Source: Chloroflexota bacterium
GTDB lineage: Bacteria; Chloroflexota; Dehalococcoidia; SM23-28-2; RBG-16-64-32
Assembly (NCBI GenBank): GCA_037441345.1
Contig: JBBISJ010000002.1
Location: forward strand, 103,403-167,402
DNA: 64,000 bases
Direction of reading: 5' to 3'
How positions within the stretch are numbered: the stretch's first letter is position 1; every line of letters begins with the position of its first letter. The notes beneath the pieces are model-generated. The model worked only from the letters and a program-made list of their open reading frames with translations. It did not search any database and had not been told where the DNA came from. The position numbers and the translations under genes are program-made. Positions 31,278 through 32,798 of this stretch are shown one piece after another.

Positions 31278-32798
31278 GTGACGTTCGAGCCGAAACCATC
31301 CGAACGAATCATCAAGCGCTTCGGTGGACAGACCGCGCTGGCCAATCTGCTGGGCAAGCGCCAGAGCACCATCGAACATTGGGCCAGCACCGGCCGGATT
31401 CCGGCACAGTGGCAGGGGCCGCTGATGTCGCTGGCACGCCAGAAAGGGATCGTCTTGGAAGCCAAAGACTTCGTCGCCCACGAGCCTCACACCATCGCCC
31501 CGGCAGGAGGCCGCCTCGGCGTGCTCCTGGTCGGACTCGGGGCCGTCGCATCCACGTTTATCGCGGGCGTCGAGCACGCGCGCCGGGGCACGGCCAGCCC
31601 CATCGGATCTCTGACCCAGATGGGCACGATCCGGCTGGGCAAGCGCACCGAGGGTCGCATGCCTCTCATCAAGGAGTTCGTGCCGCTGGCAGCGCTGGAC
31701 CAGATTGTGTTCGGCGCCTGGGACCCGATCCCGGACAACGCCTACGAGGCAGCAATCAAATGCGGCGTGCTCGACCGCCACGAACACATAGAACCGATCG
31801 CGGACTTCCTGAAGACGGTCGAGCCGATGCCGGCCGTCTTCGACGACTTCTACGTGAAGCGGCTTCAGGGAACAAACGTGAAGCGCTGCGGCACCAAGAT
31901 GGAGGCCGCAGAGGCGATCCGCGCCGACATCCGCGACTTCAAGGAGAAGAACCACTGCGACAGGCTCGTTCTCGTCTGGTGCGCCTCCACCGAGATCTTC
32001 CTGGAACCTGGGAAAGCGCACGCCAACCTGGAGGACTTCGAGGCGGCGTTGGAGTCGAACGACCCCAGTATCGCCCCGTCCATGATCTACGGCTACGCCG
32101 CCCTGATGGAGCGAGTCCCATTTGCCAACGGCGCGCCGAACCTCACCGTCGACGCGCCGGCACTCGTGGCGCTCGCGAACGACAAGGGTGTGCCGATCTG
32201 CGGCAAGGACTTCAAGACCGGCCAAACGCTGATGAAGACGGTGCTCGCGCCGATGCTCAAGGCGAGGATGCTCGGCGTTGCCGGCTGGTACTCCACGAAC
32301 ATCCTCGGCAACCGCGACGGGGAAGTGCTGGATGACCCGGAGAGCTTCAAGACCAAGGAGGAGTCCAAGCTGGGCGTTCTGGAGTACGTGCTCCAGCCGG
32401 ACCTGTACCCCGACCTGTACGGGAACATCTTTCACAAAGTGCGGATCAACTACTACCCGCCCCGTGGAGACAACAAGGAAGGATGGGACAACATCGACAT
32501 CTTCGGGTGGCTCGGTTACCCGATGCAGATCAAGGTCGACTTCCTCTGCCGCGACTCGATCCTTGCGGCGCCCCTCGCGCTTGACCTCGCTCTTTTCCTC
32601 GACCTGGCGCAACGGGCCGGCCTGAAGGGCATCCAGGAGTGGCTGTCGTTCTACTTCAAGAGCCCCCAGCACCCGGCGGCCGTCTACCCGGAACACGACC
32701 TGTTCATCCAGCAGACAAAGCTGAAGAACACGCTGCGCTGGCTGATGGGCGAGGAGCAGATCACGCACCTCGGCACCGAATACGCAGACGAGGGCTAG
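31278..32798 (+). CDS. ino1: Inositol-3-phosphate synthase with N-terminal Cro/YdaS-like HTH fusion
   Basis: GVLLVGLGAVASTFIAG, NGAPN, GKDFKTGQT, NILGNRDG, GDNKEGWD, RDSILAAP; about 66 extra N-terminal aa with an HTH pattern. Confidence 0.93.
   Translation: MTFEPKPSERIIKRFGGQTALANLLGKRQSTIEHWASTGRIPAQWQGPLMSLARQKGIVLEAKDFVAHEPHTIAPAGGRLGVLLVGLGAVASTFIAGVEHARRGTASPIGSLTQMGTIRLGKRTEGRMPLIKEFVPLAALDQIVFGAWDPIPDNAYEAAIKCGVLDRHEHIEPIADFLKTVEPMPAVFDDFYVKRLQGTNVKRCGTKMEAAEAIRADIRDFKEKNHCDRLVLVWCASTEIFLEPGKAHANLEDFEAALESNDPSIAPSMIYGYAALMERVPFANGAPNLTVDAPALVALANDKGVPICGKDFKTGQTLMKTVLAPMLKARMLGVAGWYSTNILGNRDGEVLDDPESFKTKEESKLGVLEYVLQPDLYPDLYGNIFHKVRINYYPPRGDNKEGWDNIDIFGWLGYPMQIKVDFLCRDSILAAPLALDLALFLDLAQRAGLKGIQEWLSFYFKSPQHPAAVYPEHDLFIQQTKLKNTLRWLMGEEQITHLGTEYADEG

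Follow-up and report, generated by a model that had tools for sequence, protein, structure and literature searches.

A Cro/YdaS-like head on the inositol-3-phosphate synthase of Chloroflexota: a candidate autorepressor of its own gene

Introduction

Why should an enzyme of inositol synthesis carry a DNA-binding head, and to which DNA might that head bind? The question is raised by a 64,000-nucleotide (nt) stretch of contig JBBISJ010000002.1 from a Chloroflexota bacterium, referred to here as the window, in which an inositol-3-phosphate synthase (Ino1, also MIPS) begins with a helix-turn-helix (HTH) domain and a palindrome lies directly ahead of the start codon. Enzyme-repressors with their own DNA-binding domain, or "trigger enzymes", are represented by BirA, PutA, and NadR. 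In Corynebacterium and Mycobacterium, ino1 is regulated by IpsA, a LacI-type protein that senses myo-inositol. To our knowledge, every regulator so far described for inositol synthesis in bacteria is, like IpsA of Actinobacteria, a separate protein. The Chloroflexota, with abundant members such as the Dehalococcoidia and SAR202, appear as a whole phylum to have made the regulator part of the enzyme itself.

An earlier note on the window had proposed that this protein regulates itself. Our comparisons make it probable that HTH-Ino1 is an autorepressing enzyme-regulator of the BirA/PutA kind, which represses its own gene. Self-regulation is strongly indicated in silico: the promoter palindrome strictly co-occurs with the HTH and follows it into unrelated fusions. 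The features on which the argument depends are as follows.

31250–31266, no strand assigned: 17-base-pair (bp) operator candidate CAACGAAATTTTCGTTT, scoring 17.4 bits, the sole site of at least 9 bits in the window
31266–31271, + strand: −10-like hexamer TAGACT, its first T 12 nt ahead of the GTG, abutting the right arm of the operator candidate
31278–32798, + strand: HTH-Ino1 fusion gene, 506 residues, GTG start, stop codon at 32796–32798
31296–31472, + strand: Cro/YdaS-like (carph-isopro) HTH, residues 7–65, assigned by NF046037, AlphaFold2 (AF2), and Foldseek
31443–31457, + strand: possible internal start, a Shine-Dalgarno (SD)-like AAAGGG at codons 56–57 with TTG at codon 60 (31455–31457), giving an HTH-less product of ~447 residues
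31473–31511, + strand: linker, residues 66–78, ~12–13 residues, variable in sequence and of lower model confidence
31512–32795, + strand: inositol-3-phosphate synthase proper, an NAD-binding Rossmann part with GLGAVAS followed by the catalytic domain (PF07994, PF01658, 7NWR_B)

The HTH-Ino1 fusion protein

The fusion is read as a single uninterrupted frame across 31278–32798 on the + strand, and no start earlier than the GTG is possible because a TAG stands in frame at 31266–31268. The position of the start is kept in relatives, 9 or 21 nt ahead of the codon for residue 8. Both peptides quoted in the earlier note match the translation letter for letter, at residues 11–60 and 73–90. The note had counted about 66 residues ahead of the normal Ino1 start, and this agrees with the alignment to the closest solved MIPS, which opens at residue 67; the extension measures ~66–78 residues.

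That closest structure is 7NWR_B (Bacteroides thetaiotaomicron BT_1526), which aligns over residues 67–497 with an E-value of 4.5e-168. NAD_binding_5 (Pfam PF07994) matches residues 80–487 (E = 1.8e-94, 317 bits against a cut-off of 25, model positions 1–321 of 321), and Inos-1-P_synth (Pfam PF01658) matches residues 315–427 (E = 2.5e-34, 118 bits against a cut-off of 27). The translation also contains the conserved MIPS stretches GLGAVAS, VWCASTE, NGAPN, GKDFKTGQT, and STNILGNRDG. By both Pfam models, at full length, the window protein is classed as a member of the inositol-3-phosphate synthase family, and the Pfam matches together with the 7NWR alignment indicate that the enzyme part is complete. 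Activity and a tetrameric state have been reported for the 7NWR enzyme (PMC9246714).

The N-terminal head scores well above the cut-off of 38 bits for the NCBIfam model NF046037, "carph-isopro domain", at 60.1 bits when the whole protein is searched and 64.4 bits when the domain is searched by itself (model positions 2–53 of 54), which places the protein in that family by sequence. A domain profile built from 19 relatives and compared with PDB sequences finds Xfaso1 Cro (3bd1, E = 1.5e-6), then XPH1, P22 Cro, and Pfl6 Cro. The recognition-helix region aligns with Xfaso1 Cro as RQS-I--W---GR-PA. The AF2 model of the isolated domain, with a predicted local distance difference test (pLDDT) score of 90.1, contains four helices at residues 7–14, 18–25, 29–38, and 43–56, the third of which (QSTIEHWAST) is the recognition helix. 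Foldseek again identifies 3bd1 as the top match in the PDB (probability 1.00, template modeling score 0.71, root-mean-square deviation 2.1 Å), followed by 6on0 (the N15 Cro-DNA complex), 2hin, and 1rzs (P22 Cro). As modeled, the head has a Cro-like fold, and the Cro/YdaS-like HTH recognized in the earlier note is borne out by the NF046037 score, the PDB profile matches, and the fold. Among other members of the domain family, 49 of 53 match YdaS_toxin (PF15943) at E ≤ 1e-3 (best 1.4e-17) and 34 match P22_Cro. YdaS binds operators over promoters and represses, as established by electrophoretic mobility-shift, footprinting, and reporter assays (PMC8630535).

Conservation of the head is strict. 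Residues F15, Q18, Q29, S30, T31, W35, G39, P42, and W45 are, among others, invariant across 66 sequences; 25 columns of the domain are invariant across classes, and residues of the recognition helix are among them. The HTH frame is in frame and free of stops in all 22 independent genomic loci, under strong constraint at the protein level. These loci and more than 120 protein clusters carry the fusion across Chloroflexota, which settles the count and distribution that the earlier note had left to be checked: the fusion is not unique to this assembly. They come from independent projects and rule out an assembly chimera. The 120 top-scoring clusters are 79–94% identical over at least 95% of the query and ~505–515 residues long; the extreme N-terminus varies, the domain is conserved, and most relatives start with ATG a few residues ahead of it. 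A scan of one genome per species finds the fused form in Dehalococcoidia, Tepidiformales, Ktedonobacterales, Thermomicrobiales, Chloroflexia, and SAR202. Orthologues without the HTH occur in Gemmatimonadota, Acidimicrobiia, and Acidobacteria; they are 70–80% identical and align only from residues 52–75. A tblastn search with the domain detects neither an HTH in any frame nor a separate small upstream HTH gene at the unfused loci. On this comparison, the fusion is a Chloroflexota-wide trait on an enzyme that is otherwise found without the HTH.

The earlier note knew of no description of such a protein. This stands insofar as our literature search turned up no paper that treats "carph-isopro", fusions of an HTH to MIPS, or a trigger-enzyme role of MIPS, but the domain itself had already been curated by NCBI as NF046037. 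That annotation consists of a domain name alone; we found no publication, function, or operator for the carph-isopro family, and the promoter-embedded class of palindrome described below is not part of the annotation, as far as checked. The Bacteroides MIPS paper is silent on HTH-MIPS fusions (PMC9246714).

The actinomycete isolate Plantactinospora endophytica NBRC 110450 (locus L022, 5950–6130) has a Chloroflexota-type ino1 with 71% identity. Its HTH has decayed through an in-frame stop and a frameshift, leaving remnants such as "IRRIHRFAG*CALARMSRKRQSAAERSARTGRIAAH", and the locus holds no operator site of at least 13 bits. The sequence suggests that the gene arrived by horizontal transfer and then lost its regulator head. 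A metagenome-assembled genome labeled Acidobacteriota (L030) contains a Ktedonobacterales-like fused ino1 with an identical operator, TAACGAAAAATTCGTTA. Its enzyme part is frameshifted and the open reading frame ends at 260 residues; the oddity is probably due to mis-binning combined with an assembly error.

The palindrome and promoter of the fused gene

Between the truB stop codon and the GTG lies the operator core AACGAAATTTTCGTT (31251–31265), a perfect palindrome that has a unique match in the window. The adjacent palindrome to which the earlier note had appealed is, in this sense, real. It is also general, as a 17-bp palindrome, TAACGAAAWTTTCGTTA, directly precedes the start codon in 23/23 fused loci. 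We aligned the 60 nt upstream of the start from the window and 18 fused loci, and four further loci fetched later agree with the result. The alignment reveals a recurrent layout in which a −35-like hexamer (TTGACA or TTGACT in many Dehalococcoidia) is followed by (T)AACGAAAWTTTCGTT(A), which fills the whole 17-nt spacer, then by a TAnnnT overlapping the right arm of the palindrome, and after 6–9 nt by ATG or GTG. The palindrome thus fills the −35/−10 spacer of a leaderless-type promoter in most fused loci. TAnnnT with its first T 12–15 nt ahead of the start is present in 21 of the 23, and this motif at that spacing is a published signature of leaderless genes (PMC3160421). The ino1 mRNA is most likely leaderless, with the transcription start placed from the promoter layout.

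Scanned with a weight matrix for the 17-mer, 23/23 fused loci show a site of at least 13 bits just ahead of the gene, and the 61 unfused loci (681,641 nt) show none. Rfam detects no RNA element near the gene; its single match in the window is a tRNA at 21123–21194.

The number and placement of operator-like sites vary in some relatives. Two copies stand upstream of ino1 at L006 5923–5968 (29 nt apart) and at L032 5866–5882 (~96 nt apart), an arrangement reminiscent of multi-operator Cro/CI control. In several Dehalococcoidia (L007, L008, L010, L011, L012, and L015), a second match to the matrix, TACCGAAAAATTCATTA (14–16.5 bits), falls within the coding sequence of ino1 at about +710 nt relative to the start codon, where the conserved residues S-T-E-K-F-I are encoded. 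Coincidence in the coding sequence is the probable explanation; an intragenic operator is possible. In a close relative (L164, 2067–3910), truB is separated from the operator/ino1 unit by an inserted restriction-modification pair (N6_N4_Mtase and RE_XcyI), and adjacency of truB and ino1 is therefore unnecessary for the promoter.

The HTH family and its operators outside Ino1

The fused and unfused ino1 loci belong to different phyla, so that a comparison limited to Ino1 is confounded by phylogeny, and for this reason the operator argument leans on family members that are not Ino1. An exhaustive profile search places the domain in at least 1,100 representative proteins (162 at E ≤ 1e-10), nearly always at the N-terminus. 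Its partners include P63C, RhuM, MEDS, IalB, DHBP synthase (RibB), an Apyc1-like metallo-β-lactamase, rhodanese, and DUF218, and there are many stand-alone forms and tandem arrays.

We fetched 80 metagenomic loci of non-Ino1 members from unrelated metagenomes. Nearly all carry a 17-bp palindrome of the same class ahead of their own start codon, in variants such as TACCAAAA..TTTGGTA, TATCAAAA..TTTGATA, TAACGA....TCGTTA, and TACCGAAATTTTCGGTA. The palindrome is usually positioned between TTGACA and a −10 box, often in two or three copies. The matrix for the family has the consensus TA[ACT]C[AG]AAAWTTT[TC]G[TGA]TA, or in short form TA-N-C-N-AAA-W-TTT-N-G-N-TA. It finds sites of at least 12 bits in 78 of 87 non-redundant upstream regions, whereas dinucleotide-shuffled sets yield 0.92 on average and 4 at most; the nine regions below 12 bits indicate that family members off the consensus exist. 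A pattern fixed before training (A2, C4, G14, T16, and at least six of eight complementary pairs) is present in 27 of 68 regions and in 0.9 of the shuffled ones. Individually fetched metallo-β-lactamase and MEDS fusions match the consensus. The palindrome of a RibB fusion (L081) differs, with TTAGTTC-N5-GAACTAA. The operator class thus follows the domain regardless of partner or organism, and no other observation argues as strongly for binding of the Ino1 HTH to the palindrome at its own gene.

Several members of the family are curious in their own right. P0221 (L083, 3001–4134) joins the HTH to an Apyc1-like metallo-β-lactamase (Pfam Anti-Pycsar_Apyc1), with AACGGAATGTCCGTTAAGAAT ~75 nt upstream, and could be a self-repressed enzyme that degrades cyclic nucleotides. 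P0207 (406 residues) and P0253 (490 residues) consist of four or five tandem HTH copies with no other recognizable part. P0192 (701 residues, 11 "copies") resembles a translated DNA repeat and is probably spurious.

Proposed autorepression

Sequence comparison gives the fusion and its conservation, the co-occurrence of operator and HTH, and the position of the operator within the promoter. DNA binding by the head, repression rather than activation, and pairing of the heads with the help of the oligomer are what we infer from these. The bifunctional protein would consist of a presumably tetrameric, NAD+-dependent inositol-3-phosphate synthase body, a linker, and an all-α HTH head. Its mRNA would be leaderless, with TAGACT as the −10 element and the GTG 6 nt later, and the 17-bp palindrome (T)AACGAAAWTTTCGTT(A) would fill the −35/−10 spacer and overlap the −10. 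The two half-sites would be occupied by a pair of HTH heads that the oligomeric enzyme keeps together. Cro-type heads act on DNA in pairs, and a tetrameric body, as in the homologous MIPS 7NWR, can supply the pairing. An occupied operator would shut out RNA polymerase and repress ino1 transcription, providing negative autoregulation of the enzyme level. Repression, rather than another outcome, is expected on occupancy because the operator fills a spacer of optimal length and overlaps the −10 box. In the lineage of the window, repression would extend to the inositol-lipid genes behind ino1.

A number of results weigh against autorepression or limit what can be drawn from the data. The head falls short of the Pfam thresholds, reaching 22–25 and 19–22.5 bits against cut-offs of 30 and 30.2 in the P22_Cro (PF14549) and YdaS_toxin (PF15943) models. 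The full-length AF2 monomer model is poor (pLDDT 66, with residues 311–429 in the catalytic half below 50), too poor for the packing of the HTH on the enzyme or the geometry of an HTH pair to be read from it. Training and scoring of the weight matrix used the same upstream regions, albeit with a very large margin over the shuffles. Operators with G at half-site position 5 tend to be paired with heads that have arginine just before the recognition helix (odds ratio 8.4, p = 1.7e-4 over the whole set), but the association weakens to a non-significant trend once the Ino1 fusions are left out (p = 0.075) and is not used as proof. A generic sigma-70 scan called no promoter at 30800–33000; it missed the TAGACT −10 because the −35 is weak here, and the promoter can be recognized only after relatives are aligned. 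Finally, a transcript search found the sequence in DNA runs of a subsurface metagenome only.

Alternative explanations

The confounding of fusion with phylum also bears on an explanation in which the palindrome is the site of a separate regulator or a mere promoter feature, and the HTH serves protein contact or nucleoid tethering, or is a neutral relic. The right arm overlaps the −10 box, so that the promoter could explain part of the conservation, and the link between HTH and palindrome is drawn from their co-occurrence. The left arm, however, has no promoter role and is conserved as strongly as the right, and this class of palindrome moves with the HTH into unrelated genes and samples. The recognition-helix residues are invariant, a relic would not hold 25 invariant columns across classes, and in Plantactinospora the decayed head goes together with the lack of a site. 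We regard this explanation as improbable. Still more improbable, in our estimate, is that translation of the enzyme starts wholly or mostly at TTG codon 60, with the HTH confined to a minor isoform or untranslated and the fusion largely an annotation artefact. TTG encodes Leu60 in 12 of the 13 nearest loci and is rare at other conserved leucines: over 37 conserved Leu columns in seven full-length loci, TTG accounts for 11 of 259 codons, seven of those 11 being at codon 60. Codons 56–57 read AAA GGG, AGA GGT, AGG GGG, or CGA GGA in relatives and form an SD-like element 6–9 nt upstream of the TTG, in part through AGA and AGG arginine codons at codon 56 that are rare in these genes. The unfused orthologues, moreover, start at aligned positions ~52–75. 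TTG codon 60 looks like a retained internal start for an HTH-less enzyme whose N-terminus would match that of the unfused orthologues. On the other side, the HTH frame is constrained as protein in all of the loci noted above, and the promoter geometry sets the first start codon at the predicted +1. In the Dehalococcoidia clade L007–L016, codon 60 is CTG, CTC, CTA, or CTT and the fusion is kept; because the TTG is lost there, the fused protein itself must be the working enzyme. Production of the short form only is thus unlikely, and it is plausible from these sequences that two isoforms coexist in the clade of the window, where the HTH-less one would, speculatively, dilute the HTH heads per tetramer. 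A translation start downstream of the HTH, which the earlier note had named as evidence that would count against its proposal, may in part exist as the start of this second isoform.

Autorepression may also be tied to metabolism. In a metabolite-sensing trigger enzyme, occupancy by NAD+/NADH, glucose-6-phosphate, or inositol-3-phosphate would shift the HTH heads and with them the affinity for the operator. This extends autorepression rather than competing with it. The architecture parallels that of BirA, PutA, and NadR; the linker is short (~13 residues) and fixes the HTH N-terminally beside the NAD-binding domain; and the HTH family is also found on sensory or ligand-binding partners such as MEDS. 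The data, however, fit constitutive autorepression equally well, and a generic self-repressing module better accounts for partners without a common ligand (P63C, RhuM, IalB, RibB, and metallo-β-lactamase), a range wide enough to suggest that the module needs no metabolite coupling. By analogy with known trigger enzymes, we consider metabolite sensing possible but rather doubtful. A broader proposal, somewhat more doubtful again, is that the carph-isopro HTH and its promoter palindrome make up a portable self-repressing N-terminal tag that has been grafted onto many proteins without relation to one another, among them the phage proteins P63C and RhuM, an Apyc1-like metallo-β-lactamase, MEDS sensors, RibB, and Ino1. 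In Chloroflexota, Ino1 would then act as a flux sensor, in which the NAD(H), glucose-6-phosphate, or inositol-3-phosphate state sets operator affinity, and in the clade of the window the HTH-less codon-60 isoform would join the full-length form in the tetramer and so tune the number of heads per tetramer.

Relation to known regulators

As an autorepressor, HTH-Ino1 would share with BirA, PutA, and NadR an N-terminal DNA-binding domain and a metabolic enzyme in one polypeptide, an operator (here predicted) at the promoter of the pathway's own gene, and an oligomeric enzyme able to pair the DNA-binding heads. The fold of the head differs, being of the all-α Cro/YdaS type, whereas BirA has a winged HTH and PutA a ribbon-helix-helix. 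The enzyme in the present case is MIPS, and the predicted operator sits in the spacer of a leaderless-type promoter. If the proposal is correct, a new enzyme-repressor pairing would join this short list. IpsA likewise controls ino1 transcription through a palindromic operator at the ino1 promoter (predicted here), but it is a separate protein, while in the window the regulator is built into the enzyme and no LacI-type gene is adjacent.

The Cro/YdaS proteins (PF14549, PF15943; 3bd1, 6on0, 1rzs) have in common with the head the four-helix fold and the recognition-helix signature, as well as 17–18-bp palindromic operators that overlap promoters, again predicted in our case. They are free-standing, self-dimerizing proteins of 60–100 residues. 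The head of HTH-Ino1, in contrast, is a covalent N-terminal module on a housekeeping-type enzyme of 440 residues, encoded in a chromosomal, non-prophage context, and its sequence scores below the Pfam gathering thresholds. For a curated but uncharacterized family, in which many of the at least 1,100 representative proteins have phage or defense-related partners, the analysis offers a likely function, autorepression, together with the consensus operator given above. Operator, promoter, and recognition helix are predicted precisely enough for a test with one protein and one 17-bp oligonucleotide. The natural promoter/operator/HTH cassette is compact and might be reused for self-limiting expression.

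Neighboring genes

Four genes on the + strand follow ino1 and are tightly packed from 32817 to 36236, with gaps of at most 19 nt or overlaps. Their products were assigned by Pfam.

32817–33728, + strand: Lip_A-type acyltransferase
~33737–34495, + strand: PHP-domain protein
34492–35619, + strand: GT4 glycosyltransferase (PimA-like)
~35619–36236, + strand: CDP-alcohol phosphatidyltransferase

No + strand terminator was found in 30800–33000, and the lipid genes are probably co-transcribed with ino1, in the lineage of the window only. Apart from the window, only its closest relative (L001) has these genes behind ino1; the 21 other fused loci (0/21) have unrelated neighbors. The earlier note's picture of a protein that controls an inositol-lipid operon accordingly holds for the lineage of the window and fails for those 21 loci; a conserved inositol-lipid operon under such control was rejected as a general feature, synteny being limited to the window and L001. 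Judged by the alignments, the conserved unit is the promoter, the operator, and HTH-ino1, not the operon.

The PHP-domain protein lies within the inositol-lipid cluster, between the acyltransferase and the GT4 glycosyltransferase, and could be the phosphatidylinositol-phosphate phosphatase of the pathway. Upstream of the operator candidate, the 3' end of truB (31114–31169) contains a 26-nt direct repeat in two copies that are 96% identical and 30 nt apart. The repeat duplicates the peptide EARAQ(P/S)ADGL in the variable C-terminal tail of the protein.

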